Part shown: positions 2,763 through 59,520 of the stretch, piece by piece
Position numbering within the stretch: position 1 is the first letter of the stretch
How the letters are laid out: every line of letters starts with the position of its first letter
Assembly (NCBI GenBank): GCA_964515925.1
Contig: CAZEYP010000005.1
Location: 276 to 64,275, forward strand
Source of the DNA: an uncultured Nitrospirota bacterium
GTDB taxonomy: Bacteria; Nitrospirota; Thermodesulfovibrionia; Thermodesulfovibrionales; JdFR-85
DNA length: 64,000 nucleotides
Direction of reading: 5' to 3'
Notes under the pieces: model-generated
What the model was told of the DNA's origin: nothing
Database searches by the model: none
What the model saw: the letters and a program-made list of their open reading frames with translations, nothing else
Translations under genes and position numbers: made by a program

Positions 2763-2771
2763 TGATAAAAT
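2763..2771 (+). promoter_or_regulatory. Candidate extended -10 (TGaTAAAAT) placed so that +1 falls on the ATG of the kinase gene
   Basis: TG at 2763-2764 and hexamer TAAAAT at 2766-2771. The ATG starts at 2778 and no Shine-Dalgarno lies between. Confidence 0.3.
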
Positions 2772-2777
2772 AAGACT

Positions 2778-5237: not shown

Positions 5238-5245
5238 GGATGTTT

Positions 5246-5280
5246 GATTTATGATTTATGATTTCAGATTTTAGATTTAT
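5246..5280. repeat. Heptamer tandem array GATTTNN x5
   Basis: gatttat gatttat gatttca gatttta gatttat, directly after the kinase stop. Confidence 0.9.
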
Positions 5281-5294
5281 TTATAAATTTTACC

Positions 5295-6644: not shown

Positions 6645-6707
6645 GATTTCAGATTTGGGATTTAAGATTTAAGATTTCAGATTTATGATGTTAGATTTAT
6701 GATTGAG
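6645..6707. repeat. Heptamer tandem array GATTTNN x9
   Basis: Begins at the nucleotide after the regulator stop codon and ends 5 nt before the next ATG, in unbroken 7-nt register. Confidence 0.9.
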
Positions 6708-6712
6708 ATGAA

Positions 6713-7330: not shown

Positions 7331-8113
7331 TTGATACCCTATCCTGACATAAAACCCTATATAATCAAGATTGGTCCATTGCAGGTCAGATGGTATGGAC
7401 TGATGTACCTGCTTGGATTTACATCATCCTATCTGCTTGTCTGGTATCAGGTAAAAAAGAAAAGGCTTCCAATAGACAGACAGGTTATAGATGACCTCTA
7501 CTTTTACTTAATTCTCGGCCTTATCATTGGTGCAAGACTGGGTTATGTTGTTTTTTACAATCTACCCGAATACCTGAAAAACCCGCTGGAAGTCTTTGCC
7601 CTCTGGCATGGTGGCATGTCTTTTCACGGTGGGTTGATAGGCACAGTAGTGGCTGGCTACATCTTCTCAAGGAAACGGAATGTGGATTTCTGGCTCTTTG
7701 CTGACATGATAATAGCAACAGCTCCTATAGGGCTCGGTCTGGGAAGGATAGGAAACTTCATAAATGGTGAGCTTTTTGGAAGGCCCTCTACAGTGCCCTG
7801 GGCTATGGTCTTCCCTGAAGGTGGCCCCCTGCCAAGACATCCATCCCAGCTCTATGAGGCATCAGGTGAAGGTCTGCTGCTTTTTATTCTGCTGTGGTTC
7901 TTAAAAGACCGCATCAAGACCCCAGGATTTTTGACATCATACTTTCTAATATTTTACGGGGTTATAAGGTTTTTCCTCGAGTTCTTTCGCCAGCCTGACC
8001 CACAGCTTGGCTTTATAGTGTCTTTCTTAACGATGGGACAGATACTCTGTACGGGCATGATAGTGGCTGGTATCATACTTTATGTTATCAGGAGAAGAGT
8101 TGGCACGGTGTAA
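7331..8113 (+). CDS. lgt: Prolipoprotein diacylglyceryl transferase
   Basis: 260 aa, TTG start. Carries VRWYGLMYLLGF and GRIGNFINGELFGR motifs and multiple TM segments. Confidence 0.85.
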   Translation: MIPYPDIKPYIIKIGPLQVRWYGLMYLLGFTSSYLLVWYQVKKKRLPIDRQVIDDLYFYLILGLIIGARLGYVVFYNLPEYLKNPLEVFALWHGGMSFHGGLIGTVVAGYIFSRKRNVDFWLFADMIIATAPIGLGLGRIGNFINGELFGRPSTVPWAMVFPEGGPLPRHPSQLYEASGEGLLLFILLWFLKDRIKTPGFLTSYFLIFYGVIRFFLEFFRQPDPQLGFIVSFLTMGQILCTGMIVAGIILYVIRRRVGTV

Positions 8114-10493: not shown

Positions 10494-10496
10494 TAA

Positions 10497-10572
10497 AATT
10501 TCAGATTTCAGATTTCAGATTTTAGATTTAGGATTTGGGGGATTTGTTTAGGATTTAGAGTTTAGGGGTTGG
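10497..10572. repeat. Heptamer array GATTTNN decaying into GGATTTRG units
   Basis: gatttca gatttca gatttta gatttag gatttgg ..., lying between ccoI and ccoS. Confidence 0.85.
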
Positions 10573-10585
10573 AGTTTTTAAATAT

Positions 10586-10765
10586 ATGTGGAGTGTTTTT
10601 TTTCTGATAATTGTAGCTCTTGTGCTCGGCGTAGCAGCCTGGCTTATATTCGTATGGGCTGTAAAAAGCGGCCAATACGACGACCCGGAAGGGGCCAAGT
10701 ATCGTATGTTAGAGGATGATGACGAAGAAAGGAATGAGTCTAAAGTAGATACTCAGAAAGATTGA
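10586..10765 (+). CDS. ccoS: cbb3-oxidase maturation protein CcoS/FixS (59 aa, below the ORF-track cutoff)
   Basis: Hand translation gives MWSVFFLIIVALVLGVAAWLIFVWAVKSGQYDDPEGAKYRMLEDDDEERNESKVDTQKD. It has a single TM plus the W-x-x-KSGQYDD signature, and sits downstream of the FixI-type ATPase. Confidence 0.75.
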   Translation: MWSVFFLIIVALVLGVAAWLIFVWAVKSGQYDDPEGAKYRMLEDDDEERNESKVDTQKD

Positions 10766-12143
10766 TTCTGTATTTATTTGGATCAAGGGTTTTTACAATA
10801 GTTCTCAGGTATCTTCCGTTTTCGTTCTTCTCAGTCAGGTCAACCACTTTCCCCTCGATCTTTTTACCTGAGCTGTCAACTATTATCATCACGCGAGGTC
10901 TGTCAGCATGAATCGGATTGCATTCATAAACAAGACCCATCTCCTTTGTATCAAGCAAAACCAGTGAGCCTACAGGGTAGACCCCCACCATGTTTACAAA
11001 GAATTTAAAAAGAACAGGGTCAATCTGTGTACCAGCCCTGTCCATCATTATACTCAGTGCCCTGTCGGGCTGTAGTGGCACCCTTGAATAGACCCTTGAT
11101 GATGTCATTGCATCATACTGGTCTGCAATGGATACTATCTTTGTATAGAAATCAAGTGGTATCTGTGTCTTTATTTTAGGATACCCACTGAAATTCATGT
11201 GCATATGGTGTTCAAAGGCAACGATAGCGCTTCGCATTGTAATATTGTCAACTCCCTTAATCTTTAGAATCGTAAGGAACCCCCAGTAAGGATGTCTTTT
11301 TATTATCTTCCACTCCTCGTCAGTGAATGCAGTCGGTTTATTCAGGATCTCCTTTGGAATCTCCATCTTCCCAATATCGTGGAACAGAGCCACTATCCCC
11401 AGTTCAGTTAATGCCCTGCGCTGCAGCCCGATCTTCTGCCCTATTGCAATTGAAAGGATGCTTACATTAACAGAATGGTGGTAGGTGTATTCATCGTAAT
11501 CCTTTATGGCAGTCATTCCAAGAAGCAGTTGTTCCTCCTCAAGAATCATGTTTACCATTGACTCGATTACCCTCTTTGCCTTCTTAATACTTACCTTCTC
11601 ACCAGCACGCAATTTAGTGATTATACCCTTTGTAAATGAAACCGCATTAAAGTATGTCTTCTTAACTATCCTCCTTCTATCAAGTCCTTCTTCTTCGCTG
11701 ATATGCTTAAGGGGGCCTACATCTATTGTATCCACATCTTCAAGCTTTGCTACCATTGCCTCAAAAGGGGTGTTGAGGTATGCCACATCTATATATGCCT
11801 TAACAAAGAATTTCAGATGCTCCTTGTTAATACCTGGAGAGAATGTCACACTTCCGAGACCTCTTCTTCTGAACTCTCTTATCAGATAATCAAAATTGAG
11901 CATTAACTCTACAGGATATCTGACCCTTGTATCGTTAAGATAAAAATACTCCCCAAGAAGCTCAATTTTTACCAGATTATCCTCAGCAAAAACTGGACTT
12001 ATAAGCTCAAGGAGCCTGTCCATTGCACTCTGAACAGCCACATTATCAAGGCTATGAAAATAGGCATTTCTAATTATTATGGCAAGCTGATTTATCAGCT
12101 CCTTTGCCTTTTCCCTGAACCGGGTTTCATCCTTTTCTTGCAT
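10740..12143 (-). CDS. HD-GYP domain protein (putative c-di-GMP phosphodiesterase) with N-terminal uncharacterised domain
   Basis: 467 aa. Contains HHSVNVS, LFHDIGK and HHMHMNFSGYP. Confidence 0.85.
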   Translation of the reverse strand: MQEKDETRFREKAKELINQLAIIIRNAYFHSLDNVAVQSAMDRLLELISPVFAEDNLVKIELLGEYFYLNDTRVRYPVELMLNFDYLIREFRRRGLGSVTFSPGINKEHLKFFVKAYIDVAYLNTPFEAMVAKLEDVDTIDVGPLKHISEEEGLDRRRIVKKTYFNAVSFTKGIITKLRAGEKVSIKKAKRVIESMVNMILEEEQLLLGMTAIKDYDEYTYHHSVNVSILSIAIGQKIGLQRRALTELGIVALFHDIGKMEIPKEILNKPTAFTDEEWKIIKRHPYWGFLTILKIKGVDNITMRSAIVAFEHHMHMNFSGYPKIKTQIPLDFYTKIVSIADQYDAMTSSRVYSRVPLQPDRALSIMMDRAGTQIDPVLFKFFVNMVGVYPVGSLVLLDTKEMGLVYECNPIHADRPRVMIIVDSSGKKIEGKVVDLTEKNENGRYLRTIVKTLDPNKYRINLSEYLL

Positions 12144-13761
12144 CCTCTATCCTCTTGATAGCTTTTATAACACTTTCCTGAATCATTGGATTTTTGTTGT
12201 TTCGATTCTTCTTTAAAAGTTCAAGTGCCCTTTCGGTACCCAACAGACCAAGACAGTAAGCAGCGATAGCATTGAGCTCTGTGTACTTAGATTTTCTGAA
12301 AAAGCTCCTTTTTTTAAAAAACCCGATTATCAGCTCTTCAATAGCAGGTTCTCGCCACTGGCACAGAGCCTCAAGCAATTCCTTTTTCTCATTAAAGTCC
12401 TTATGAAGAAAATCCTTGCTGTTTATCTCATCAAGTATTATCTTCTTTGCAAGTGGACCACCAATACGCGCAATGCTTCTAATTGCAGCCAGCCTGATAG
12501 TCACATCATCTTCCTTCAAACTGTCCTGTAGTGCCCTGAGTACATCCTGTGCTCCAAGGGCACCAAGGGCATTAATGCACTCCTTTCTTACTCTGATATC
12601 AGGGTGTTTTATAAGAGGCCTAAGATACAGGGTGGCCTCTTTCTTTCCTATCTGATGAAGTATGTAAATAACATTTCTTACAACATACCACCTTCCGTCT
12701 CTCAAACCCCGTGCTATTTCTGCCATATACCTGCTGCCCATTGTTATCAAGATATTAATAATCACCTTCCTTGAAGACATGCTCTGAAGTTCACCAAGCA
12801 GTTTCAACAAATGAGGGATGGCTCTGGAATCAAGATAAGAGGAAAATTCATCTATCTCTTCAGGTTCATAAATAGCGCCTCTTTCAAGGGTATCACCAAA
12901 GGTTAGTATTATATCTTCAGAGTTGATATATTCAATCACATCAGAAAAGTACTTTTTTCTGGTTTCTTCGTTATATCCTTTTATCTTTTTCATAGCAAAA
13001 AGCAGCGTTGACAATGTACCATGTTCAACAGCATACCTGATGGTGTCTCTCATGAATCCTGCAATTTCTCGTATCTCTGTCTGGGTTTCTGCATATCTTA
13101 AGGCTTCAAAAAGCAGTATCATGAATTTATGACTCTTATCTGGCTGGTCGTTTTCAATCTCTTCAACAATTGCCTGAAGGTCCTCATTGGTAAGTGGAAC
13201 TATGTTTACTCTCTCAGTGCTGGATGCCCCAAAGGCATCCTCGTAGGCCTTAATAATCTCATCCTCGCTGGCTGTTGCGTCCTTAACCTCTTCGGTTGCA
13301 GTGTATTCGTATCCCTCGTCTATCTCTTCAAATATAAAATTCTCATCCACCACATAGCTGATGTATTGAAAATCCCGCTCCCACATCAGGGTTACCACAT
13401 CGTCGTCCAGGAATTCTCGTTCAAAATCAGCTGCTATTATCTTAAGGAAATCTGTCAGTTCATCCTCGGGGAGCCCTTTCTTAAAACTCAGCTCCCTAAC
13501 TCCGTCTTTAAAGAAGAACAGGGCAAGGCTTTCGTCCTTTTCTCTGTTTTCATAAACAACTTCATCTTCATAAATTATCTCGAAATGTTTTATTCGTAGT
13601 TTAAGTTCTTCCATATAATCAAGCAACTCTGAGAATCGCTGATACACATCTTTGAGGGTGTTTTGATAAACCGGATTGTTTTCAGGATAAATCCTGATAT
13701 TTTTTCTTGCCTTGACAATGGCCTGAATGAGCTCTTTTACTTCATTGATATCATGTGACAT
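12127..13761 (-). CDS. HEAT-repeat protein with N-terminal domain resembling that of the downstream HD-GYP protein
   Basis: 544 aa. C-terminal half has repeated HEAT/PBS-lyase-like units (DIRVRKECINALGALG, DVTIRLAAIRSIARIG). Its stop overlaps the HD-GYP start by 17 nt. Confidence 0.65.
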   Translation of the reverse strand: MSHDINEVKELIQAIVKARKNIRIYPENNPVYQNTLKDVYQRFSELLDYMEELKLRIKHFEIIYEDEVVYENREKDESLALFFFKDGVRELSFKKGLPEDELTDFLKIIAADFEREFLDDDVVTLMWERDFQYISYVVDENFIFEEIDEGYEYTATEEVKDATASEDEIIKAYEDAFGASSTERVNIVPLTNEDLQAIVEEIENDQPDKSHKFMILLFEALRYAETQTEIREIAGFMRDTIRYAVEHGTLSTLLFAMKKIKGYNEETRKKYFSDVIEYINSEDIILTFGDTLERGAIYEPEEIDEFSSYLDSRAIPHLLKLLGELQSMSSRKVIINILITMGSRYMAEIARGLRDGRWYVVRNVIYILHQIGKKEATLYLRPLIKHPDIRVRKECINALGALGAQDVLRALQDSLKEDDVTIRLAAIRSIARIGGPLAKKIILDEINSKDFLHKDFNEKKELLEALCQWREPAIEELIIGFFKKRSFFRKSKYTELNAIAAYCLGLLGTERALELLKKNRNNKNPMIQESVIKAIKRIEDARKG

Positions 13762-13763
13762 GG

Positions 13764-14036
13764 CTAAACAATAATGATTTTTCTCTGTTTAAGATAGTTT
13801 CTGATGATCATCAAGGCAGAGTTCAATCTCTGAAGCCTCATATTTCGGTATCTGATTGCCTGAATGTCATTGTAAGGAAACTTCTCCCCCCTTATCTCAT
13901 TCTGAGCCCGCTGAATCTCTTTATATAACTGTTTTATCACATCTGAGTCAAGTGGTTTAAGGAAAAGGGGATTTACCGTAACATATCCCTCCGCGATGTC
14001 CCAGACAATCGACCTTACACTCTTACCCCGTATCAT
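13764..14036 (-). CDS. Hypothetical 90-aa protein
   Basis: ORF wedged between tatC (14-nt overlap) and the HEAT gene (2-nt gap). No recognisable motif. Confidence 0.45.
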   Translation of the reverse strand: MIRGKSVRSIVWDIAEGYVTVNPLFLKPLDSDVIKQLYKEIQRAQNEIRGEKFPYNDIQAIRYRNMRLQRLNSALMIIRNYLKQRKIIIV

Positions 14037-14814
14037 CCTTTTTCTCGTCTTTCTTCTTGGAAAAAATCTTAGAAATTATTATACCAGCCTCGTATAAGAT
14101 TAAAATAGGCCCTGCCATGAGTGTCTGGTTGAAGGCATCTGGCGTTGGGGTTAATATCGCCGCCAGCACAAAGGCAATCAGTATTGCGTATTTTCTGTTC
14201 TTCGAAAGGGTTTTTGGTGTGACAATACCCATGCGGGTTAAAAATAGAATCACTATTGGCAACTCAAATATTGCACCAAAGGCAAGCAGGAATTTAAGTG
14301 TAAAATCAATATAGCTGCCCACCGATATCATCGGCATCAAAGAGCCAGTCTTATAGGTAAGCAAAAAGCCCATTGCAAAGGGTAGTATCACCATAAAACA
14401 AAAGATATCACCTATTAAAAAGAGTCCAGTGCCTGCAATGATAAAAGGGCCTACATATTTTTTCTCGTGAGGCAGCAGACCAGGTGCAACAAACTGCCAT
14501 ATCTGGTAAAGGATAATCGGTATAGACAACAACACACCTGCTACAATGGAAACCTTGATATGCATCCAGAATGCCTCGGCAGGTGCAAGGAAGACAAGCT
14601 TCTGTACTGGATGTTCTTTTTGAATTAATTCAAGATAGGGTGATGAAAGCTTCAGATGCAGGTCATAACGCAACGGTACAGTTAATAATCTGAAAAGCTT
14701 CTCAGAATAAGCGAAACTGATACCAAAACCAATACCCACAGCTATTAGAGATTTAATCAGCCTCTGCCTGAGTTCCTGAAGATGGGCTGTAAGGGGTAGC
14801 TTTTCTTCACGCAT
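14023..14814 (-). CDS. tatC: Twin-arginine translocase subunit TatC
   Basis: 263 aa starting [17 protein letters not shown], six TM segments, typical TatC layout. Confidence 0.9.
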
Positions 14815-15136
14815 CGGATTTTGGCCCTTCCTCCTCTTTAGAAGGCTGCTCTTTTATACTGCTTTGTTCATCAGTTTTTTCATCTGCCTCCTTAAGGTAT
14901 TCATTATAATCAAACTTCGGAAGGTCCCTTGTTATATCCTTTATCTCTGTAGAGATTGGAGATTTTATCTCCTCCATCTCAGAATCAATCTGCTCCTTAA
15001 CCCCCTGAAGTGCCTTCTTCAGCTCATTGACCCCCTTACCAAGGCTCCTCGCAAGCTCAGGAAGCCTCTGAGGTCCAAACACTAAAAGCGCCACCACAAA
15101 GATGACTATAAGTTCAGGCATTCCAATGTCAAACAT
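14807..15136 (-). CDS. tatA: Twin-arginine translocase TatA/TatB-family subunit
   Basis: 109 aa starting [28 protein letters not shown], then an amphipathic helix and an acidic tail. Confidence 0.85.
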
Positions 15137-15137
15137 G

Positions 15138-16487
15138 CTACCTCACCCTCAAACTTATGTATATATACCCTGAGGCCCTTTTAAGAAGAAGCAGGATAGA
15201 ATCACCTCGTCTTAAATCCTTTACCACTTCGGCCAGCTCTTCAACAGTGGTCACCCTTTTTCTGTTTGCCTCTATAATTATATCTCCCCGGTGTATGTTT
15301 TCCTCTTCAGCCACAGAGCCTTCAAGAACACTAACCACAATTACTGCTCCACCATCTTTGATTCCATACTGTTCTGCAATGGCAGGATGAAGGGTCTTAA
15401 CCCTCAGACCAAGCACTCTGGCAATCATACTTTCAGGTGTTGCAGAGCCAGCAGCAAGTCTCTCAATGGTTACATGAAGGGTCTTAATCTCTCTGTTTCT
15501 GAAAACCTTCATCTCAACAGTTGTACCAACAGGTGTTGCAGCCACCAGTCTTGGTAGCTCATACATTCCCTCTATGGACTTACCGTTGTATTCAATTATT
15601 ATATCACCACGCTGAACACCGGCCTTGTCTGCTGGAGAACCCTTTGTAACATCAGCTACAAGCGCACCTCTTGGCCTGTCAAGTCCAAAACTCTTTGCAA
15701 TCTCTGGTGTCACCTTCTGTACTGTCACTCCGAGCCATCCCCTCTCTACAAAACCCTTCTCCTTTAATGATTTAACAACCTGCTTTACAAGATTTATTGG
15801 AATGGCAAACCCTATCCCTATATTTCCACCTGATGTTGAAAAGATTGCAGTGCTTATCCCTACAACCTCGGCATCAATATTAAAGAGAGGGCCTCCTGAG
15901 TTGCCAGGATTAATTGCAGCGTCGGTCTGTATAAAATCATCGTAGGGGCCTGTACCAAGAACCCTCCCCTTTGCACTTACTATCCCTGCAGTAACTGTAT
16001 GACTGAAACCAAAGGGATTTCCGATTGCTATCACCCAGTCTCCCACTTCCAGTTTATCAGAATCACCAAGCGGAGCTACAGGCAATTCCTTCTCTGGCTC
16101 TATCTTCAGAAGCGCCACATCTGTTTTTTCATCTTTTCCTATCACCCTGGCAGGGTACTCTGTTTCATTCCAGAGCCTAACCCTTATATCCTCTGCCCTA
16201 TCGATCACATGATAATTGGTTACAATATATCCATCGCTGCTTATTATTACCCCGGAGCCCAGGGAATGTCTTCTGAATTTTTTTGGTTCATCCATTGGAG
16301 AGCCAGGCAGAAAGGGAAAGGGAGAGCTCCTCTTTGTTACCACCTTTGTAGTGCTAATGTTAACAACTGTCTTTGCCCTCAGTTTGACTATTTCGGCAAA
16401 AGACTCGGGCACTGGACGGGCAAAGGCAAAACTAAAAGATAACAAACATAATGCAATGGCGATTATTAGACTTTTATAAATCTTCAT
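15138..16487 (-). CDS. Periplasmic serine endoprotease DegP/HtrA family (2 PDZ)
   Basis: 449 aa with a signal peptide. Catalytic motifs TNYHVI, DVALLKI and [17 protein letters not shown] lies inside the upstream gene's end, and the junction is TAATG. Confidence 0.9.
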
Positions 16488-19909: not shown

Positions 19910-20370
19910 CAGAAGATCTGCACTTTATGAAACTGGCATTAAAGGAAGCCCAAAAGGCCCTTGAGAAAGATGAAGTGCCAGTAGGGGCGGTGATCGTGAA
20001 AGATGGAGAGGTTCTGGCAAGCTCATACAACCAGCGTGAGGGACTTAATGACCCTACAGCCCATGCCGAGCTACTCGCCATAAGAGAGGCAGCAAAGAAT
20101 CTAAAAAACTGGAGACTTACCGATACCACCCTTTATGTGACCAAGGAGCCCTGCCCCATGTGTGCCGGAGCAATTGTAGGAGCCCGTATCAAAAGACTGG
20201 TTTATGGCTGTAAAGATGAAAGGGGAGGTGCAACAGAAAGCCTATACAGGATTACTACAGACCAGAGGCTAAACCATCAGGTGGAAGTTGTTTCAGAAAT
20301 ACTGGCAGATGAATGCAGAAAACTGCTTCAGGATTTCTTCAGGAGGAAAAGGGAAAAAGATAGGGTGTAG
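19906..20370 (+). CDS. tadA: tRNA adenosine(34) deaminase
   Basis: 154 aa. HAELLAI and PCPMCAGA zinc motifs. Its stop TAG lies inside the heptamer array. Confidence 0.9.
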
Positions 20371-20515
20371 GGGGTAGCGTGTAGGGGGTAAAAAAAGACA
20401 GGGTGTAGGGGGTAGGGTGGTAGCCTTAAACACAATAAACGCAATGAACACAAAGAACTCAAAAAACGCTATCAACGCAATTAACGCTATGAACGCAAAG
20501 AACGCAATAACCCAG
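20362..20515. repeat. Composite array (reverse orientation): GGNGTAG heptamers followed by 10 nonamers; contains the 87-nt core
   Basis: 20390-20476 is the exact reverse complement of 59390-59476. Confidence 0.9.
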
Positions 20516-20520
20516 TCACC

Positions 20521-21639
20521 CTATCCCAAAAACTCCCTTATCCTCCTTACCCCCTCTTTCAGTTCCTCAATATCCCGTGTATAGGCAAACCTGACATACT
20601 GGCTGGTATTATTTCTTCCAAAGTCAACCCCCGGGGTTATGGCAAGGGCCTTCTCTTTAAGCAGTTTCTTGCAAAAGCTCAGGGAATCATCACTGTAGCG
20701 GGAGATGCCGGCCCATATGTAAAAGGCACCCTCTGGCTTCACATCAATATCAAACATATCCTTCAGGGCATTGTAAAGAAAATCTCTCCTCTTACGAAAG
20801 GTCTCTCTAACGTAGTCAAGGTGGTTTCTATCAAATGCCTCACAGGCTGCATACTGGGCAGGGGTGTTTGCAGCAATAAATATGTTCTGCACCACCTCCT
20901 CTGCCTTTCGCACAAGCCTCTCAGGAAGAACCATCCAGCCCACTCTGAAGCCGGGCATACAGAAGTATTTTGAAAAGCTGTTTATTACTACCACATTGTC
21001 TGAAAACTCAAGTGCTGAATGCTCCTTCTGATCATACACAAGGCCATGATAAATCTCGTCTGAGATAAAAAGCCATCCCTTTTTCTGCGAAAGTTCAATC
21101 AGCCTTTCCATTGACCTTCTATGGTACAGGGTTCCTGTGGGATTGGCTGGTGAGGATATAAGTATTCCTCCAGCAGCATCTATACCTTTTAACTGTTCTT
21201 CTGTTATCTCGTAGTCAGTCTCTTTTCCTACAGGTACTGTTACTGGCTCAGCCCCAAGGAAATAACCAAAGTTCTTGTAGCAGGGATAGGAAGGATCAGA
21301 AAGTATCATACCAAGTGAATCAGCACCAAGCATACCGAATATAACAAGAAAGGCCCCGGAGGTGCCGGGCGTAATTATTATCCTTTCTGGTGAGACCTCT
21401 ACCCTGTAATAGTCGTGATAATGTTGTGCTATCCTCTCTCTCAGTAACAACAGTCCCTTTGCCTCTGTATAGTGGAATCTCCTGTCCTTTATAGCCCTTT
21501 CATAGGCATGTATAACCCTTTCCGATGTTAGCAGGTCTGGCTCGCCTACCTCCATATGTACAGCATCTGGCATGGTACGAGCCTCTCTCAGGATGTCCAT
21601 CACTAAAAATGGAGTTATCCTCTGAAGCCTCGAACTCAT
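20521..21639 (-). CDS. Class I/II PLP-dependent aminotransferase
   Basis: 372 aa with an SFSKYFCMPGFRVGW PLP-lysine motif and an aspartate-aminotransferase-family layout. Confidence 0.85.
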   Translation of the reverse strand: MSSRLQRITPFLVMDILREARTMPDAVHMEVGEPDLLTSERVIHAYERAIKDRRFHYTEAKGLLLLRERIAQHYHDYYRVEVSPERIIITPGTSGAFLVIFGMLGADSLGMILSDPSYPCYKNFGYFLGAEPVTVPVGKETDYEITEEQLKGIDAAGGILISSPANPTGTLYHRRSMERLIELSQKKGWLFISDEIYHGLVYDQKEHSALEFSDNVVVINSFSKYFCMPGFRVGWMVLPERLVRKAEEVVQNIFIAANTPAQYAACEAFDRNHLDYVRETFRKRRDFLYNALKDMFDIDVKPEGAFYIWAGISRYSDDSLSFCKKLLKEKALAITPGVDFGRNNTSQYVRFAYTRDIEELKEGVRRIREFLG

Positions 21640-28070: not shown

Positions 28071-28100
28071 AAGGTTGAGAGGCCCTGTCCTCTCAACCTT
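28071..28100 (+). terminator. 12-bp perfect hairpin after the lipoprotein gene (no U-tract)
   Basis: aaggttgagagg-ccctgt-cctctcaacctt. It is followed immediately by the nonamer array rather than by T residues. Confidence 0.4.
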
Positions 28101-28323
28101 GATGCGTTCATAGCGTTCATAGCGTTGATTGCGTTCATCGCGTTCTTTACGTTAATAGCGTTTATAGCGTTCTTTGCGTTGATAGGCGTTATTTGAATTC
28201 ATCGGGTTCTTTGCGTTTATTGAGTTGATTGCGTTAATTGTGTTGATAGCGTTTTTTGAGTTCTTTGTGTTCATTGCGTTTATTGTGTTTAAGGCTACCA
28301 CCCTACTCCCTACCCCCTGTCTT
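28101..28323. repeat. Nonamer array GCGTTNATN (about 22 units, one with a 1-nt insertion) plus 3 CCCTACN heptamers; contains the 87-nt core
   Basis: Units counted by hand in 9-nt register from 28101 to 28299, then 7-nt register. The core differs from the 59390 copy at 2 positions. Confidence 0.9.
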
Positions 28324-29268
28324 TTACTTAAACTTCAAAAGATGGGGAATGCCGTCATGCCTTTCAAGAATCCTATAGAGCTCTTTAGTATCAATCCGTT
28401 GAAGAGTTCCTGAACTAATTAGCTTCCTGACTGCTCTGCTAAAGTCCGTGCCGCCGGTTTTGTAATCTGCATGTGCCTCAATATAAACTCCGTTACTGCT
28501 AAAGAGAAGCTTTATCGGCTCATATATAATCTTAACCTCTGTTCCAACCCTTACAAGGTCGTACAGGGTCTTTATATCCTCTGGATACATCCTCAAACAG
28601 CCATGGCTCACCCTTCGGCCTATACCAAGTGGTTTGTTTGTACCGTGAATCAAATAAGACGGATTCGACAACCTCAATGCATATCTGCCAAGTGGATTAT
28701 CAGGGCCAGGTGGAACCATTTCAGGCAGTGTTGGCTCCTCAGCTCTTATTGAGGGTGGCACCACCCATACAGGGTCTTTTATCTTCTGTATAATCCTGTA
28801 TTCACCCAACGGTGTGTCCCTGCCTTCACTGCCGATACCTATCGGGAATGTAAGAACTGCAACCCTTCCTGTATTTAGTGTTTTGAAGTAGTACAGTCGT
28901 AGCTCAGCAAGATTTATAACTATGGTGTCTGTTTGCAGGTCCTTTAGCTCCGGCGTGATCCAGATCGTGGGAATTATAACCCCTGTGCCCTTGCCTGGAT
29001 ACCAGGGGTCAACACCAGGGTTTGCATCAGTGATTTCGTTGTATCCAAGGTCGTATTGTATGGCTAAATCTACAAGAGTTTCTCTATCATCCTTTATCGT
29101 ATAACTCTGTAAAACACCAAGAAGTGCTGGAGCTTTATAATCACTTAAAAGGAAGGCACCTCTGAACGAATAGGCCCTCTGGCAGAGAATAAAAAGAAAA
29201 CAGGTAACTATAAAGAGATTTACACTCCATTTCTTCCATGTCTTATCATCAGTATTCCATAAAACCAC
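28324..29268 (-). CDS. L,D-transpeptidase (YkuD domain)
   Basis: 314 aa with an N-terminal TM/signal segment and the catalytic SHGCLRM motif. Confidence 0.85.
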   Translation of the reverse strand: MVLWNTDDKTWKKWSVNLFIVTCFLFILCQRAYSFRGAFLLSDYKAPALLGVLQSYTIKDDRETLVDLAIQYDLGYNEITDANPGVDPWYPGKGTGVIIPTIWITPELKDLQTDTIVINLAELRLYYFKTLNTGRVAVLTFPIGIGSEGRDTPLGEYRIIQKIKDPVWVVPPSIRAEEPTLPEMVPPGPDNPLGRYALRLSNPSYLIHGTNKPLGIGRRVSHGCLRMYPEDIKTLYDLVRVGTEVKIIYEPIKLLFSSNGVYIEAHADYKTGGTDFSRAVRKLISSGTLQRIDTKELYRILERHDGIPHLLKFK

Positions 29269-37078: not shown

Positions 37079-37100
37079 TGAATAGGAGTTGTCATTTTTA

Positions 37101-37135
37101 CTACACCCTACACGCTACCCCCTAAACCCTATAAT
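37101..37135. repeat. Heptamer array CTACNCC x5 (decaying)
   Basis: ctacacc ctacacg ctacccc ctaaacc ctataat, between mtaD and dcd. Confidence 0.85.
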
Positions 37136-37147
37136 TATGGAGGTTTT

Positions 37148-46630: not shown

Positions 46631-46652
46631 GGTTTATTATAACAGGCAAGTA

Positions 46653-46975
46653 GAGTTAATTGCGTTTTTTGCGTTAATAGCGTTAATAGCGTTCATAGCG
46701 TTCATTGAGTTGATTGCGTTAATTGCGTTCATAGCGTTCATATAGTTTATTGAGTTAAATGGGTTTGTTGGGGTGGGATGTAGTTAGTGTTGAGAGATGA
46801 ATGTTTAGTGTTGAGTTAGGCTTTTTTACTAAACACTAAAAACTATGCACTCAAAACTAAAACTACTCCCTACACGCTATACGCTACACCCTGTAATGTT
46901 TAGAATTTAGAAATTAGGATTTAGAATTTTTTCTCCTACCCCCTACACGCTACTCCCTACACCCTGTCTTTATTT
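46653..46975. repeat. Compound array: 14 nonamers (GCGTTNATN) then 28 heptamers of four flavours in one unbroken register
   Basis: Nonamers span 46653-46778. Heptamers span 46779-46974: AGTGTTG-type, ACTAAAA-type, CTACACC-type, ATTTAGA-type, then CTAC-type again. Confidence 0.9.
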
Positions 46976-47010: not shown

Positions 47011-47961
47011 ATGAAAAAACCAGGACCTGTATCCCTGAAAAACCTGAAACGCTACAGCCTCAAGGAGCGCAAAAGCAAGGTACGCTCTGAATACCTTGGC
47101 AGGCCGGTTTCTCCTGAGGCAAGCCTCTTGGATTTTATTCATTCCATGCCAGATGTCCTTGCAGCAAGGGATATAAAAGATGTCTCAAGGGCAATAATAG
47201 AAGCAAGAAAAAACAAAAACCCTGTAATACTTGCCATGGGAGCCCATCCTATAAAAGTGGGACTCTCACCAATAATAATAGACCTTATTGAGCAGGGGAT
47301 AATTACCGCTCTGGCCACAAATGGGGCAGCCATAGTTCATGACTTTGAACTTGCTTTTGCAGGGCATACATCTGAAGATGTGGCACAAACCCTCGTAGAT
47401 GGCACTTTTGGTATGGCAAAAGAGACTGCAACCATGCTTAACAGGGCCATAAAGAAGGCAGCCAGAGAGGGAAAAGGGCTTGGTGAGGCTGTTGGTGAAA
47501 TGATATACCGTGGAAGAGGCTTTCCCAATCGTCATCTAAGCCTTTTTGGAAATGCATACAGACTTGGCATACCTGCCACAGTGCATGTTGCAATTGGCAC
47601 TGATATTATCCACATGCATCCAGAGTGTGACGGCGGAGCTGTGGGTAAGGCTACCTATACAGACTTCAAGATATTTACCAGCATGGTCTCAGAGCTTGAA
47701 GGCGGGGTTTTTATCAACCTTGGTTCAGCAGTTTTGATTCCCGAGGTCTTTTTGAAGGCATTAACTATAGCAAGAAACCTTGGCAACAGGGTGCAAAATT
47801 TTACCACCCTTACTATGGACTTTATGAGACATTATAGAGCCACTGTTAATGTTGTCCAGAGACCCACCATGTCAGGCGGCAAGGGATATTATCTAATTGG
47901 TCATCATGAGATAATGTTTCCATTGCTTGCAGCAATGGTGAAGGCAGGGAGTAGAGAGTAG
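47011..47961 (+). CDS. Hypothetical protein, possibly deoxyhypusine-synthase-like fold
   Basis: 316-aa ORF. The segment ILAMGAHPIKVGLSPIIIDLIEQGIITALATNGAAIVHDFE loosely recalls DHS-like proteins. Its stop TAG lies in the heptamer array. Confidence 0.4.
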   Translation: MKKPGPVSLKNLKRYSLKERKSKVRSEYLGRPVSPEASLLDFIHSMPDVLAARDIKDVSRAIIEARKNKNPVILAMGAHPIKVGLSPIIIDLIEQGIITALATNGAAIVHDFELAFAGHTSEDVAQTLVDGTFGMAKETATMLNRAIKKAAREGKGLGEAVGEMIYRGRGFPNRHLSLFGNAYRLGIPATVHVAIGTDIIHMHPECDGGAVGKATYTDFKIFTSMVSELEGGVFINLGSAVLIPEVFLKALTIARNLGNRVQNFTTLTMDFMRHYRATVNVVQRPTMSGGKGYYLIGHHEIMFPLLAAMVKAGSRE

Positions 47962-48030
47962 GGCATAGGGTGTAGGGGGTAGTAAAAAAACTACACCCTA
48001 CCCGCTACACCCTACACCCTGTTGTTTAGA
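47948..48030. repeat. Inverted heptamer arrays (NNNGTAG x5, A-rich loop, CTACNCC x4) plus TTTAGAA units
   Basis: gggtgtagggggtag (47968-47982) can pair with ctacaccctacccgc (47991-48005) at 12 of 15 positions. Confidence 0.85.
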
Positions 48031-50146: not shown

Positions 50147-51785
50147 CCTTAACATTATTCCCCTTGGTGGGGTTGAAGAAATAGGGCTGAACTGTACAGT
50201 ATTTGATTGCAACCAAGACATCCTGGTGGTCGATGCAGGGTTAATGTTTCCCGAAGAAGACATGCCAGGGGTAGATATTGTTATTCCTGACTTTACCTAT
50301 CTTATTGAAAACCGTGACCGTATCAGGGCACTTATACTGACACATGGGCATGAAGATCATACTGGTGCAGTACCCTTTTTGCTGAAGGAACTTGGAAGGG
50401 AGATACCAGTATATGGAACTGCGCTTACCCTTGGTCTGCTACATGAAAAACTTATCGAACACCGGGTAAAGGCCAACCTTATAACAGTAAAGCCAAGAGA
50501 CAAAATCAGTATAGGTTGTTTTGAGGTAGAATTCATCAGGGTGACCCACAGCATTGTAGATGGTGTTGGACTTGCAATCGGTACACCTTACGGATATGTG
50601 GTGCATACAGGCGACTTCAAGTTAGACCCCACTCCTGTTGATGGAGAGCTCCTTGATTTCAACAGATTCTCCTATTACGGTGATATTGGAACGCTGGTGC
50701 TTCTTTCTGACAGCACAAACGCTGAGAAAGGCGGCTTTACCTTTTCTGAAAAAGAGGTTCGCAGGGCACTTGAAAATATATTTAGCAGGGCAACAGGAAG
50801 GATAATCATTGCTACCTTTGCCTCAAATATTCATCGAATCCAGCAGATTGTAGATGTAAGCATACAACATGGCAGAAAGCTCTCACTCTGCGGAAAAAGC
50901 ATCCTATCTAACGCAAAGATCGCCCTGGAACTCGGGTACCTGAAGATGCCTGAAGGCACATGGTTGAGGCTTCAGGATATAATGATGCTGCCTGATGAAC
51001 AGATTGTACTTATCACCACAGGCAGTCAGGGTGAACCAATGAGCGTTCTCTCAAGAATTGCCATGGATGAACACAAAGACATAAAGATAAAACCCAATGA
51101 TACGGTGGTACTTTCAGCCAAAATGATACCCGGTAATGAACGGGCAATCGGTAGGATTATTAATCATCTCTTCAGGAGAGGGGCAAATGTCTTATATGAA
51201 AAGGTTTCGGAAGTACATGTATCCGGACATGCTTCAAAGGAAGAACTGAAGTTAATGTTGAATCTGATAGGGCCTAAATACTTTGTGCCTGTTCATGGTG
51301 AATACCGACATCTTTCCTATCATGCCATGCTTGCAACCAAGCAGGGCATCCCGGAAGAAAATATCTTCATTCTCCAGAACGGAGATGTGCTGAGTATAAA
51401 CGACCAGGAAGCCTCAATCTCTGGTCATGTACATGCTGGTAGGGTGTTTATCGACGGCAAGGGTGGAATCGAGGATCTGGTCCTTCGCGACAGACGAAGG
51501 CTTGCACATGATGGCATAGTGGTTATCATTATTGGCATGGAGAAGCCGGGAAAGGTTATCATCGGACCTGACATAGTATCGAAGGGCTTTGTTATGGAAG
51601 AAAGTTCTCCAGATATTATCAACGAAATAAAAGAGGCCATATTGGAACAATTAAAAGTGCTGGACGAAGAGATACTTGAAGATAGTTCTGTATTGAAAGC
51701 TCGTCTCAGAAGCAGCGTAAAGAAATTTATACAGAAAAAGATGAACCGACGCCCCATGGTAGTGCCTATTATATTTGAAATTTAG
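50139..51785 (+). CDS. rnj: Ribonuclease J
   Basis: 548 aa. Metallo-beta-lactamase HGHEDH motif, beta-CASP layout, and an 8-nt overlap with argF. Confidence 0.9.
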   Translation: MHSLNIIPLGGVEEIGLNCTVFDCNQDILVVDAGLMFPEEDMPGVDIVIPDFTYLIENRDRIRALILTHGHEDHTGAVPFLLKELGREIPVYGTALTLGLLHEKLIEHRVKANLITVKPRDKISIGCFEVEFIRVTHSIVDGVGLAIGTPYGYVVHTGDFKLDPTPVDGELLDFNRFSYYGDIGTLVLLSDSTNAEKGGFTFSEKEVRRALENIFSRATGRIIIATFASNIHRIQQIVDVSIQHGRKLSLCGKSILSNAKIALELGYLKMPEGTWLRLQDIMMLPDEQIVLITTGSQGEPMSVLSRIAMDEHKDIKIKPNDTVVLSAKMIPGNERAIGRIINHLFRRGANVLYEKVSEVHVSGHASKEELKLMLNLIGPKYFVPVHGEYRHLSYHAMLATKQGIPEENIFILQNGDVLSINDQEASISGHVHAGRVFIDGKGGIEDLVLRDRRRLAHDGIVVIIIGMEKPGKVIIGPDIVSKGFVMEESSPDIINEIKEAILEQLKVLDEEILEDSSVLKARLRSSVKKFIQKKMNRRPMVVPIIFEI

Positions 51786-51816
51786 GCTCTATTATTTTAA
51801 AATTAATGTTATCTCT

Positions 51817-52836
51817 ATGATAAGCAACTCAAGAAAATATATATTATTGTTTGTTGCAATCTCGGCGACACTGTCCATACTCTCATGCGTTGAGATCAAA
51901 AAATCCCATCCTGTCTTAAAGATCAAAGAATACGAGCGACTCATTGCAGGCAGGCTTGATGCTGATTATGTTGGCACCCGGGCATGTCTTTCAGCCTGCC
52001 ATGCCCATGACAACATAAAGAGGGCCTTTGATGCAAGCACAATGGGGGCTCAGATGAAGGGTAACACCGGTATGCCCATGGTGGACTGTGAATCCTGCCA
52101 CGGCCCCGGAAGTCTTGCCATCAAGGGAATCACAAAGAAACTGGTTGAAGAAAACAGAAAAAGGGGGATAAAAACCACCTGTAATTACAAGACATTGATA
52201 GATATAAAAAATCTTCCAGCGCCGGCAAAGAGCCTTATCTGTCTAAAATGCCACACCGCCAATGCAACCTTCAACCTTCATGAATGGAACACTGGCATAC
52301 ACGCAATAAACGATGTCTCCTGCCCCGACTGTCATAAGATCCACAGTGGCCCTGACCTGAAGGTAAAACCGATAGATACTGCTGAGATGTGCTTTAAGTG
52401 TCATCAGGATATTCGTGCTTACTACAGCATGCCCAACCATCATCCCGTAGTTGAGAAAAAGATGTTCTGTACAGACTGTCACAACCCTCATGGCACCACA
52501 ACTGAACATCTACTGAAAAGAGAAACCGTGAGAAAGACCTGTACCCAGTGTCATGGAGAAAAACAGGGTCCCTATCTTTACGAACATGGTGACCTTACCG
52601 AGGAGTGCACAACCTGTCACCTACCCCACGGCTCACCAAATAATAATCTTCTTAAAGTCAGAGAGCCATTCCTGTGTCTTGAGTGTCATGAAACTCATAC
52701 TATAAACACCACTACAGGACAGGTCATATCAACCACAACCAAGCAGTACTTCTTCACACGTTGCACTGACTGCCACAGTTCAATACATGGCACAGACACT
52801 CCTTCTCCATCCGGAAACGGGAGGTTCATACAGTGA
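51817..52836 (+). CDS. Decahaem c-type cytochrome, MtrA/DmsE-like, with lipoprotein-type signal peptide
   Basis: Nine CXXCH motifs plus one CX3CH (CLSACH). C-terminal CTDCHSSIHG. Signal MISNSRKYILLFVAISATLSILSC. The ORF-track start at 51775 is a TTG inside the rnj end. Confidence 0.85.
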   Translation: MISNSRKYILLFVAISATLSILSCVEIKKSHPVLKIKEYERLIAGRLDADYVGTRACLSACHAHDNIKRAFDASTMGAQMKGNTGMPMVDCESCHGPGSLAIKGITKKLVEENRKRGIKTTCNYKTLIDIKNLPAPAKSLICLKCHTANATFNLHEWNTGIHAINDVSCPDCHKIHSGPDLKVKPIDTAEMCFKCHQDIRAYYSMPNHHPVVEKKMFCTDCHNPHGTTTEHLLKRETVRKTCTQCHGEKQGPYLYEHGDLTEECTTCHLPHGSPNNNLLKVREPFLCLECHETHTINTTTGQVISTTTKQYFFTRCTDCHSSIHGTDTPSPSGNGRFIQ

Positions 52837-54770
52837 AAAAGACAGTTAGGGTAATAGGCACACTGCTGGTCTTCCTTTCCTTTGGATTTACTGCAACTGC
52901 AGAGGAACTTAAGCTCCCTACCTATCCCCCTACTTATCGTCTAAGTGTTGGAACCAGTCTAAAACACCTTGCTGGAAACCCAAGGGTATCAGAGTATGAG
53001 GATACCACTGATAATATTTACCTCTTTACAGACATAAGGTCATACCCACTCCCTCACAGGTTTCATCTTTTTGGTTATTTCTCTGGTGAGCATGACTATT
53101 TTGTTGACACTGGATACGCCTACAGAGACATCCTTCTGTATAGACTTGTATCAGTCGGGTTTGTACATCATACTGACCACTATCCATACGATTTAAAAGC
53201 CCCCTCACCAGTGCAACAGTACGAAGACAGAGATCCCGATGACGATTATATGCAGGATATTAGAAAAACAAAACTGAAATTAAGACTGAAATGGCCCAAT
53301 TACCCGCTTCATTTATTCTTCCGATACTCCGATTACCACCATAAGGGCAACCTTCAGCAGCGTTTTCTGATAGGATACTTTGGTAATATGAATAAAGTTT
53401 CCCAGTCAAGGAGTCTGACTAAAGATACCAGTGAGTTCAAGATTGGCACAAATGGTCATCTTGGCCCTGTAGAGCTTGAATACTTCCATATTGAAAGACA
53501 TTTTGATTCATCAAGAGATACCATTTTACAGGATGATTATCCAGAAATAAATAGTCCTCCAATTATTTATAGACCTGCAGACATTTATCCACATAATATA
53601 TACCCTGACATTAAGGGCCATGGCGATTCGTTGAAGATTCACACCTCCTATACAGGACAGATTGTTGCATCCTACTCTGTAATGGGAGATGTCTTAAGAA
53701 ACCTCTACAGTGGAGTAAAAAGAAAGACACTTCGCTCCTCAGCAACCCTTCAGTACATGCCATCTCATATCATTGCAATGTTCTTAAGGATGAATTATCT
53801 CAACATAGAAGAATCAAACACCTCATATACAGTGCTGAGGGGGCTTCAGAATCAACTCACCTACGATGTAAGAAAATCCATAGACATTGAAAAAAAGACG
53901 GTTCATCTCATAAGCCGTATCAGACCGATAAAAGACCTCACCCTTATACCATCCTATAGTATAGAAATCAAAAAGAGAACCGATACAGAGGGATGGACAC
54001 TTTCAGAAGGAGATACAACCACCCAGAGCTACAAACTGAAGGTGCTCTCAAAACCTGTCAGGAATTTAAGCATTAGAGCTGCTTACAGTCATAGCCATAC
54101 CAAAAACCCACTCTACAACTTTATACCTGAAGACAGGGACCGAATCAAACTCTATTTTTCCTATTTACCCTTGCCTCCTGTACAATTAATCGCATCCTAT
54201 ACATTTTCACATTCCAGAAGAGGTAATGTTAGTTATTATGATGACCTTACAGGGTCCTTTTATGAAGGAAAGGACAAAAAGGGCACCCATCACTTCCTTG
54301 TTATTACTGCATCCACAACTCCTGTTTATAATCTAAGCATCACCGCTTCTGTGGGTTACTACCGTGTAAAGGAGACCTCCTGTCTTGCTTTTAAACAACT
54401 GAAGGGAGATGGCACCTTTACCTTTGTACAGCCCTTTATGGAGCATTCTGTCCCCTATAAAGACAGGGCAATTACATATATGTTAAACATAACGAGACGG
54501 TTCAGCAATAGATGGAATGTTTCAGTAGATATCTCAGCAACCTATTCTAAAGGAAGTTTCCATACATCCACCGATACCCTTTCGGGTATTGATGGGTTTT
54601 CAAAGATCAACAATCGCGACAGCACTATTAAACTCAGTTCCAGTTATAAACTACTTAAAGATACCTCTATTGGTCTTGAGTTACTTTACGAGTCTTACAG
54701 TGACAGGGTAAACCCTGATCTTAATGGAAGGTTATACAGAGGGCTGATACGGTTAACCAAAAACCTTTAA
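52833..54770 (+). CDS. Large outer-membrane beta-barrel protein, MtrB/PioB-like by context
   Basis: 645 aa. Signal peptide MKKTVRVIGTLLVFLSFGFTATA, no TM helices, Tyr/Ser/Thr-rich alternating strands. A GTGA overlap links it to the cytochrome stop. Confidence 0.6.
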   Translation: MKKTVRVIGTLLVFLSFGFTATAEELKLPTYPPTYRLSVGTSLKHLAGNPRVSEYEDTTDNIYLFTDIRSYPLPHRFHLFGYFSGEHDYFVDTGYAYRDILLYRLVSVGFVHHTDHYPYDLKAPSPVQQYEDRDPDDDYMQDIRKTKLKLRLKWPNYPLHLFFRYSDYHHKGNLQQRFLIGYFGNMNKVSQSRSLTKDTSEFKIGTNGHLGPVELEYFHIERHFDSSRDTILQDDYPEINSPPIIYRPADIYPHNIYPDIKGHGDSLKIHTSYTGQIVASYSVMGDVLRNLYSGVKRKTLRSSATLQYMPSHIIAMFLRMNYLNIEESNTSYTVLRGLQNQLTYDVRKSIDIEKKTVHLISRIRPIKDLTLIPSYSIEIKKRTDTEGWTLSEGDTTTQSYKLKVLSKPVRNLSIRAAYSHSHTKNPLYNFIPEDRDRIKLYFSYLPLPPVQLIASYTFSHSRRGNVSYYDDLTGSFYEGKDKKGTHHFLVITASTTPVYNLSITASVGYYRVKETSCLAFKQLKGDGTFTFVQPFMEHSVPYKDRAITYMLNITRRFSNRWNVSVDISATYSKGSFHTSTDTLSGIDGFSKINNRDSTIKLSSSYKLLKDTSIGLELLYESYSDRVNPDLNGRLYRGLIRLTKNL

Positions 54771-59279: not shown

Positions 59280-59321
59280 TGTTTAGTTTAAAAATTCTCC
59301 CCTGATGAAATCAAATGTGGT

Positions 59322-59520
59322 TTATTGGTTATTGCGTTATGTGCGTTAATAGCGTTAATTGGGTTAATTGAGTTAATTGCGTTTATTGCGTTGATAGCGT
59401 TTTTTGAGTTCTTTGTGTTCATTGCGTTTATTGTGTTTAAGGCTACCACCCTACCCCCTACACCCTGTCTTTTTTTACCCCCTACCCGCAACACCCTACA
59501 CCCTACTCCCTGTCTTTTTT
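59322..59520. repeat. Composite array: 14 nonamers then CCCTACN heptamers; contains the 87-nt core
   Basis: Nonamer register spans 59322-59447 and heptamers span 59448-59520. The recJ stop and its last codons lie inside the array. Confidence 0.9.

Follow-up and report, generated by a model that had tools for sequence, protein, structure and literature searches.

A stretch of 64,000 nucleotides (nt) from contig CAZEYP010000005.1 of an uncultured Nitrospirota bacterium, referred to here as the window, carries at positions 59,322–59,520 a composite repeat element in which an array of 9-nt units (GCGTTNATN) passes through an 87-nt core into an array of CCCTACN heptamers. The same element occupies two other intergenic spacers of the window, and the three occurrences are called copy A (the one just located), copy B and copy C. 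On balance, we lean towards reading them as a non-coding, dispersed, composite short-tandem-repeat element that belongs to a lineage-wide family, one variant of which was recently copied between spacers by recombination.

Three near-identical copies of a composite repeat

In direct sequence comparison, the core of copy A (59390–59476, plus strand) is identical to the reverse complement of copy B (20390–20476) at 87 of 87 positions, and copy C (28242–28325) differs from it by 2 mismatches in 84 nt; both figures had been put forward in a first-pass annotation of this DNA, and both are exact. A repeat search extends the homology to 148 nt at 93% identity between A and B (59358–59505 against 20361–20508), and to 115 nt at 93% identity between B and C (20393–20507 against 28211–28325). 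To the left of the core, on the nonamer side, identity drops to about 78%, which is the level of any two in-register nonamer arrays, and to its right A and B are separated by 3 mismatches and one 7-nt unit indel up to the end of the T-run. All three copies share one layout, with GCGTTNATN nonamers followed on the same strand by CCCTACN heptamers. Chance is excluded as the source of these arrays, because both unit patterns lie far above expectation in the window: GCGTTNATNGCGTT with at most one mismatch occurs 35 times (0.11 expected) and CCCTACNCCCTAC 16 times (0.10 expected).

The number of nonamers differs from copy to copy. Tandem Repeats Finder (TRF) reports 13.6 units in A (59320–59439), 9.3 in B (20427–20510) and 20.7 in C (28103–28289), counts that take in six degenerate nonamers lying within the core. 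The earlier estimates, which also include these degenerate units, were about 14, 10 and 22; a fourth nonamer array, previously credited with 14 units, has 9.3 to 11.8 in TRF (46651–46756). The gene contexts are as first described: copy A stands in a tandem context (recJ followed by an ideR-like gene, both on the minus strand), B and C are convergent, and the 46.6-kb array is divergent. Each copy is essentially its whole spacer, in that B takes up all 150 nt from the aminotransferase gene to tadA, C together with a private 12-bp hairpin fills 286 nt, and A leaves just 40 nt to the ideR-like start codon. The flanks of A, B and C have nothing in common and contain no inverted termini. The features of the three copies are as follows.

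59320..59441, plus strand: copy A nonamer array, GCGTTNATN, about 13.6 units (TRF), 40 nt from the ideR-like start codon (59279, minus strand)
59390..59476, plus strand: copy A 87-nt core, identical to the reverse complement of 20390–20476
59443..59520, plus strand: two CCCTACN blocks of copy A, each closing with CCCTGTC and a T-run, with the recJ stop (59503–59505, minus strand) inside
20427..20512, minus strand: copy B nonamer array, about 9.3 units, starting 8 nt past the aminotransferase stop (gene 20521–21639, minus strand)
20390..20476, minus strand: copy B 87-nt core, 87/87 with copy A
20356..20423, minus strand: copy B heptamer blocks and T-runs, with the tadA-like stop (20368–20370, plus strand) inside
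28071..28100, no strand assigned: perfect 12-bp hairpin with a 6-nt loop, directly before the copy C nonamers and private to C (−22.5 kcal/mol, z −5.6)
28103..28293, plus strand: nonamers of copy C, about 20.7 units, whose phase slips by 1 nt near 28185–28203
28242..28325, plus strand: copy C core, 2 mismatches in 84 nt; heptamers 28295–28323 flush with the ykuD-family stop (28324–28326, minus strand)

The hairpin at 28071–28100 has no T-run after its stem on either strand.

The core is a junction between two arrays

The core had been taken for an added conserved module that could be a small RNA or a protein-binding platform. It resolves wholly into six degenerate nonamers, 3–4 heptamers, a CCCTGTC unit and a T-run: in copy A the nonamer part reads GTTGATAGC GTTTTTTGA GTTCTTTGT GTTCATTGC GTTTATTGT GTTTAAGGC, and it is followed by TACCACC CTACCCC CTACACC CTGTC and then by T7. 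Since it is entirely decomposable in this way, the core (module A) is a junction, at which degenerate nonamers give way to the first heptamers, and no independent functional module. Copies A and B go on into a second heptamer block with the same CCCTGTC–T-run close, and here B equals A apart from exactly one 7-nt unit.

Neither strand of the core folds better than its shuffles (z −0.7 and −1.2). In the Rfam search that the first-pass annotation had proposed, the sole family passing the gathering threshold in the whole window is one tRNA elsewhere, and over the element the best sub-threshold E-value is at least 1.4, so the core matches no known RNA family. A structured RNA is rejected on these grounds, with no fold beyond shuffles on both strands and no Rfam match even at permissive thresholds, and a coding repeat is rejected as well, with reading frames that are inconsistent between copies and match no family. 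The spacers of the three copies contain no promoter or intrinsic terminator consensus, and BLAST against plasmids and phages returns merely chance 9-nt repeats.

A structured small RNA or a small (Asn-Ala-Ile)n protein expressed from the core and nonamers is accordingly a scarcely credible alternative. What speaks for the protein is that one reverse-strand frame (AAC GCN ATN) can never hold a stop and that gene callers predict open reading frames (ORFs) of 55–68 amino acids (aa) through A and B. However, no credible ORF runs through the core: the predicted ORFs have neither end in common from copy to copy and extend antisense into the adjacent genes, the arrays carry frame-breaking indels, there is no Pfam match, and the only database relatives are similar read-throughs of other nonamer arrays (P0003–P0007). 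The (N-A-I)n 'proteins' of 68 aa (59288–59494, minus strand) and 55 aa (20417–20584, plus strand) that gene callers annotate through the nonamers are probably annotation artefacts.

The first-pass annotation recognized no CRISPR, REP or MITE layout, and that judgement stands, with no inverted termini and no shared flanks. Clustered regularly interspaced short palindromic repeats (CRISPR) are rejected because the units of 9 and 7 nt lie head to tail without spacers, whereas CRISPR arrays have repeats of 23–50 nt and unique spacers. Miniature inverted-repeat transposable elements (MITEs), repetitive extragenic palindromic (REP) sequences and bacterial interspersed mosaic elements (BIMEs) resemble the present elements in being small, non-coding, multi-copy and intergenic, and two further elements of the window, an alternative junction (module B) and an inverted repeat at 47.9 kb, are hairpins. 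Module A, by contrast, has no inverted termini, palindrome or target duplication, and its boundaries are tandem arrays. REP/BIME is therefore rejected for module A, which contains no 20–40-nt imperfect palindrome and folds no better than shuffles, only module B and the 47.9-kb element being palindromic.

A non-autonomous, MITE-like transposable element that inserts beside gene ends would account for three near-identical copies in unrelated spacers and for the final codons of recJ and tadA having been replaced by the heptamer end. RecJ ends here in ...PAKKDRE*, as opposed to ...LRPAG* in the orthologue on L003, a contig of the closest metagenome-assembled genome (MAG), and the recJ stop lies inside the heptamers; the last 5–6 RecJ codons (KKDRE*) are therefore element sequence. 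TadA ends in ...EKDRV*, tadA entering the element in the phase of recJ (AAA GAY AGG GNG TAG), and the TAA of the ykuD-family gene is flush with the copy C element. A MITE-like origin could also draw on a distant clade (L018, L085, L092, L100, L112, L124 and L128) in which elements with 26–28-nt terminal inverted repeats adjoin the arrays or, in L092, enclose one. The window copies, however, are rejected as MITEs: they have no terminal inverted repeats, target-site duplication, shared flanks or constant boundary, and on the left they have no defined edge, since identity is lost gradually within the array. Moreover, the window contains none of the inverted-repeat sequences of the distant clade, and there is no transposase in the 74 kb of this genome that were examined (the window and 10 kb past its right edge, L138). 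Such an element is thus very improbable as the explanation of module A.

In this clade, which is related to the window but more distantly, nonamer arrays alternate with multi-copy elements that have inverted termini, at L124 2961–4243 and 6229–6811, L085 4290–5110, L100 4938–5870, L018 14120–14446, L112 2576–2918 and L092 2830–2965. One of these elements is about 150 nt long, with the 28-nt inverted terminus GGCAATAACTCAATTTNTGAAACAAAAT; a second, with the terminus TATAGTGCAGATATTGCTCGAAGATT, encloses a nonamer array in L092 and unrelated sequence in L124 and L085. Tandem short hairpins, each closing in TGGAAKT, are also present in this clade.

Heptamer families and an alternative junction in the window

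The window is an ordinary chromosomal stretch, 95% coding, with 50 genes that include housekeeping genes for LeuRS, MutS, PPDK, SecA, SecDF, RecJ, RNase J and TatAC among others; no transposase, integrase or reverse transcriptase is found among the 50. Repeat arrays amount to about 1.2 kb of its approximately 3.4 kb of intergenic DNA, or about a third. CCCTACN arrays occur at 8 places and are joined by two further heptamer families, GATTTNN and ACTAAAN, nearly all of them in spacers. The GATTTNN arrays (for example GATTTCA GATTTTA GATTTAG) are located at 5245–5280, 6640–6704 and 10494–10577, and all three are sense-oriented and fill the stop-to-start gap of co-oriented genes. At the third site, an unlisted 59-aa ORF (10586–10765, plus strand) after a P-type ATPase gene encodes a cbb3-type oxidase maturation protein (Pfam FixS, E 1e-19), and the 10494–10739 gap is therefore a stop–array–start arrangement and not a convergent spacer.

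The fourth nonamer array, at 46653, had been said to lack the core. It enters another junction, the hairpin of about 100 nt named module B above, and then continues into CCCTACN heptamers; the minus-strand fold of module B reaches z −3.8 and the plus-strand fold −1.9. The last heptamer run of this element (46935–46973) stops 38 nt upstream of the start codon at 47011. A further hairpin at 47946–48028 is made of inverted heptamers, and the CCCTACN-type unit can therefore also build a terminator-like stem. The features concerned are listed below.

46651..46760, plus strand: fourth nonamer array, about 10–12 units, starting 21 nt from the radical-SAM start codon (46630, minus strand)
46772..46868, no strand assigned: module B, alternative junction, a long imperfect hairpin whose arms are inverted heptamer runs (GTAGTTA GTGTTGA ... 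/ ACTAAAC ACTAAAA ...) with a T-run loop
46866..46973, plus strand: heptamer runs 3' of module B, namely CCCTACN (46866–46890), TTTAGAA (46899–46929) and CCCTACN closing in CCCTGTCTTT (46935–46973)
47946..48028, no strand assigned: inverted CCCTACN-type heptamers (G-rich, A-run, C-rich) forming a strong hairpin (−40 kcal/mol) over the stop of gene 47011–47961, 26 nt before the next start
37095..37138, plus strand: a few CCCTACN units in the gap from the stop of the amidohydrolase gene (37078) to the start of the dCTP-deaminase gene (37148)

Elsewhere in the window (51775–54770), a multihaem cytochrome gene with paired CXXCH motifs adjoins a gene for an MtrB/PioB-like outer-membrane barrel, and the pair is conserved in L003; going by their homology, these are genes of the extracellular-electron-transfer type.

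Turnover at orthologous spacers and distribution of the family

Module B is also found in L003, where it occupies the recJ–ideR spacer (L003 11680–11875) with nearly all module columns identical, so that the two genomes differ in the module of this one spacer, A in the window and B in the relative. Upstream of yajC, L003 has an 8-unit nonamer array (6320–6392), whereas the genome of the window (L138 8547–8989) has none and carries unrelated sequence. Orthologous sites therefore show turnover of arrays and junction modules without any change in gene order. Across copy A this order fully matches that of the closest relative. As to the recombination hotspot suggested earlier, no rearrangement is seen at copy A, but the module inside the spacer has been exchanged in comparison with L003.

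The junction itself is narrowly distributed. No GTDB representative genome contains the exact 22-mer GTGTTTAAGGCTACCACCCTAC, not even the closest one ('MAG: Nitrospirae bacterium isolate S009_28'), whose RecJ is 83% identical, and an exact junction 20-mer is absent from the JGI metagenome collection. The source samples are evidently outside that collection, because L001 carries the 20-mer, and exact-junction scans therefore test other taxa and not this population. A 61-nt junction profile run over about 1 Mb of related loci matches end to end only the three window copies, and protein-database fishing with ORFs read through the core recovers no further copy; the conservation beyond three copies that the first-pass annotation had asked about is thus not seen in these searches. 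With no end-to-end copy outside the window, the junction looks young and population-specific. Short-read contigs (L002, L132, L133, L136 and L137; Logan, SRR5189948 and SRR5189949) end inside the core or the first heptamers at all three copies, as expected of a multi-copy repeat.

The genes of the window are also found on contigs from three JGI metagenomes and two SRA runs. Variation in array length between samples, which had been proposed as a check for variable-number tandem repeat behaviour, is not observed in them: spacer B is identical in contigs of JGI 3300023503 and 3300009408, and spacer A is identical in a contig of 3300023507, the samples being probably one population, so that the comparison has little power. 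The 10 kb beyond the right edge of the window contain no further array.

The nonamer family, by contrast to the junction, extends well beyond this genome. It is present in the closest MAG (three arrays in the 21.7 kb of L003), and a pattern scan of metagenomes finds at least 120 nonamer loci, including a coherent set of contigs with several arrays each; among the nonamer contigs listed, some encode proteins that are 59–73% identical to window proteins. The unit profile is common to all groups, with GCGTT followed by a free position 6, mostly A at position 7, T at 8 and A or T at 9; at least 5 other sequence groups share this profile (GCGTT n A/t T w) with the window and L003, down to T8, which was not used in finding the arrays. 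The heptamers that follow the nonamers differ in other lineages (GCGCAAAG, GTTCGAG, CGTGAAA and CTYCCGA), and relative to the GCGTT strand, period-7 sequence lies downstream in 14 of 56 cases and upstream in 5 of 56. The nonamer family is old and widespread, with lineage-specific heptamer partners, and the composite element belongs to a wider, undescribed repeat family of uncultured Nitrospirae. A search of the published literature on Nitrospirae or Thermodesulfovibrionia repeats, or on nonamer repeats, found nothing relevant.

Probable recent copying of one variant between spacers

The pattern of identity between the copies fits copying, with 100% identity over 87 nt, decay on the nonamer side and a clean 7-nt indel on the heptamer side. 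We infer that module A was recently copied between intergenic spacers by a DNA-level process, most likely homologous recombination or gene conversion, for which nonamer and heptamer arrays already present in those spacers would have provided the anchor, and the three copies would be near-identical because this copying was recent. Array lengths would afterwards shift by slippage or unequal exchange, which would result in the 9 to 21 units found upstream of the junction. The junction would stay fixed because its neighbouring units all differ from each other, which should leave no room for slippage, and its conservation would thus reflect its recent origin and its inability to slip and not selection. 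A cellular role, if any, probably belongs to the arrays as a class and not to the 87 nt; they may act as RNA spacers between cistrons, unstructured and either A/C-rich or C-rich and G-poor, or as G-rich runs that follow stop codons.

Several points weigh against this account. No empty site, donor/recipient pair or conversion-tract polymorphism was caught that would record a copying event, and only 74 kb of the genome have been seen, which makes for weak statistics on copy number and position. The retention of GCGTT and T8, with free positions 6 and 9 in every lineage, is not accounted for by neutral slippage, and neither are the rarity of identical neighbouring units and the fixed last units of both array types. 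Each of the three copies has its heptamer end touching or overlapping a stop codon, the G-rich strand being sense, and this could stem from function or from a targeted mode of insertion. Finally, the A/C-rich strand of the nonamer is the sense strand in 16 of 18 arrays (14 of 16 spacers) between co-oriented genes, whereas purely neutral or selfish DNA predicts no polarity.

Possible roles in RNA or DNA

The strand polarity hints at an RNA-level role, and an RNA-level cis element of 3' untranslated regions or intercistronic spacers, with the arrays selected as RNA, is a less probable explanation that nevertheless deserves some weight. It concerns function and is compatible with a history of recombinational copying. 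Three forms of it can be considered. The G-rich heptamer strand past the stop may form quadruplexes or hairpins that protect or define 3' ends; the C-rich, G-poor strand may be a putative Rho loading site; and the A/C-rich nonamer strand (NAUNAACGC) may serve as an unstructured leader, a standby site or a platform for a single-strand RNA-binding protein upstream of the next gene.

The first of these agrees with the G-rich strand being the sense strand of the gene whose stop lies within or flush with the heptamers in each copy, and with the −40 kcal/mol hairpin that inverted CCCTACN-type heptamers form over a stop codon. A canonical G-quadruplex (G4) motif is present on the minus strand of copy A (59485–59510) and again at 47996–48019. 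Copy B, however, needs a 9-nt loop and copy C has three G tracts, so that among the three copies the canonical four-tract motif is confined to A, and G-quadruplex formation as a unifying property fails at copy C. For the second form, the heptamer blocks of A and B are the two most C/G-skewed 78-nt stretches of the window (49% C, 4% G); the most skewed, at 59443–59520, has no predicted structure and resembles, in composition only, a Rho utilization (rut) site, which is an unstructured RNA of about 70–80 nt, rich in C and poor in G. In addition, no other terminator or promoter consensus occurs in the three spacers.

The third form draws on the nonamer polarity between co-oriented genes, on the sense orientation of all three GATTTNN arrays between a stop and the next start, and on the contig L141, in which most arrays end 1–40 nt before ribosome-binding sites or TGnTATAAT-like (extended −10-like) boxes. 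The polarity counts are nevertheless dominated by L141, which supplies half of the data, and at the level of contigs the ratio of 6 to 1 is not significant, so the polarity is suggestive only. Copies B and C are also uninformative, because each strand is sense for one of the two convergent genes, and none of these points requires the 87-nt junction to be conserved. L141 comes from one sample with the window and differs from it in GC content (35% as against 42.5%), with a tetranucleotide correlation of 0.83–0.91. Its positions 1–15799 (JGI 3300023503, Ga0256915_100060) form an island rich in toxin–antitoxin genes (PIN, HicB-like and HepT/MNT) with nine nonamer arrays in one orientation, and at 13536–13721 it carries a perfect 96-nt tandem duplication (1.9 copies, 100% identity) in a 297-aa ORF.

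A role at the level of DNA is improbable in our estimation. Here, a putative nucleoid-associated or regulatory protein would bind GCGTT at 9-bp phasing, possibly with another protein on the heptamers, and the intergenic spacers would thereby be coated. The position profile shared by the window, L003 and at least 5 other groups, including T8, is consistent with such a platform, and so is the finding that neighbouring units differ, which motif selection predicts, unlike recent slippage. Yet no protein emerged as a candidate, the motif lacks palindromy, the 9-bp phase puts successive sites on different faces of the helix, and a transcription-linked strand bias would be unexpected for simple duplex binding. 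The gain and loss of arrays at orthologous sites between close relatives likewise speaks against it.

Comparison with known repeat families

Although dispersed heptamer repeats (STRR, TAACTGA and GGGNATC) were recognized decades ago, neither their function nor the way they spread has, to our knowledge, been established. The short tandemly repeated repetitive (STRR) sequences are heptamers that were reportedly described by Mazel et al. in 1990 in heterocystous cyanobacteria, and we know of no function for them. Their canonical units are CCCCAGT, TTGGTCA and CAACAGT, in a cyanobacterial host. Both systems are dispersed and intergenic, with tandem 7-nt units at many loci per genome and several unit families per genome. 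The elements described here differ in their Nitrospirae host, in their units (CCCTACN, GATTTNN and ACTAAAN), in the coupling of heptamers on the same strand to a 9-nt array (GCGTTNATN) by a fixed junction, and in having units with invariant and free positions where STRR units are homogeneous. Compared unit by unit, the window element is an STRR analogue and not an STRR member; the lineage-specific analogue that the first-pass annotation had proposed is borne out, with two additional heptamer families and a third of the intergenic DNA occupied.

The GGGNATC and GGGGAYT heptamers of Xanthomonas and Nostoc are over-represented in non-coding DNA and have at least four consecutive G-tracts, four units being preferred (Rehm et al. 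2015, PMC4692102), and placement of the GGGNATC repeats at gene stops with the G-rich strand as sense has been reported (PMC4692102). The window repeats share the GGGNNNN form, since their other strand reads GGGNGTA and so has G3 tracts spaced 7 nt apart, and they show a similar placement, at the stops of recJ, tadA, ykuD and gene 47011–47961 and upstream of the starts at 37148, 47011 and 48054. However, four G-tracts are not consistently available here (present in A and at 47996–48019, dependent on the 9-nt loop in B, reduced to three in C), and the present arrays close with a fixed unit and a T-run and are fused to nonamer arrays. The TAACTGA direct repeats are intergenic and are found in marine Beggiatoaceae, cyanobacteria and Bacteroidetes (MacGregor 2015, PMC4679880), where they have been proposed as the binding site of a single-strand RNA-binding protein (PMC4679880). 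They resemble the present family in being short direct repeats that are concentrated in spacers, strand-oriented toward a downstream start and patchy among lineages, but here the unit is a 9-nt one with free positions, the arrays reach about 21 units and the evidence for polarity is much weaker.

Satellites and minisatellites of the eukaryotic style have array ends that are degenerate and stable. The present arrays are similar in that their interior length varies and their edge units are degenerate and non-slipping, but they have very short units and measure less than 200 nt, and each copy is a whole gene spacer in a genome that is 95% coding. Dispersed families of transposed non-coding satellites are described as rare in a survey of prokaryotes (PMC6749651).

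Implications for uncultured Nitrospirae

The family constitutes an independent and unusually structured case, with two periodicities in a fixed order, invariant and free positions and fixed terminal units. A nonamer that is common to diverged genomes while its heptamer partner changes, together with a module swap in at least one orthologous spacer, provides comparative leverage, which should help to part motif selection from slippage and RNA-level from DNA-level roles. On the practical side, the elements break short-read assemblies and yield spurious small-ORF calls in metagenome annotation.

There is, moreover, an outside chance that a conserved trans-acting factor reads or writes the nonamer arrays, a reading suggested by the maintenance of GCGTT..T. 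at a 9-nt phase across lineages, the free positions 6 and 9, the fixed last units and the lineage-specific heptamers on the same strand. This factor may be a protein that binds single-stranded nucleic acid and for which the A/C-rich transcript would be an intercistronic code, in a post-transcriptional network of the kind suggested for TAACTGA repeats, where it is not known to have been demonstrated, or, more radically, it may be a templated repeat-adding activity that builds arrays with a defined terminal unit. If either version were true, the composite elements would be the outward trace left by an undescribed system common to a clade of uncultured Nitrospirae.

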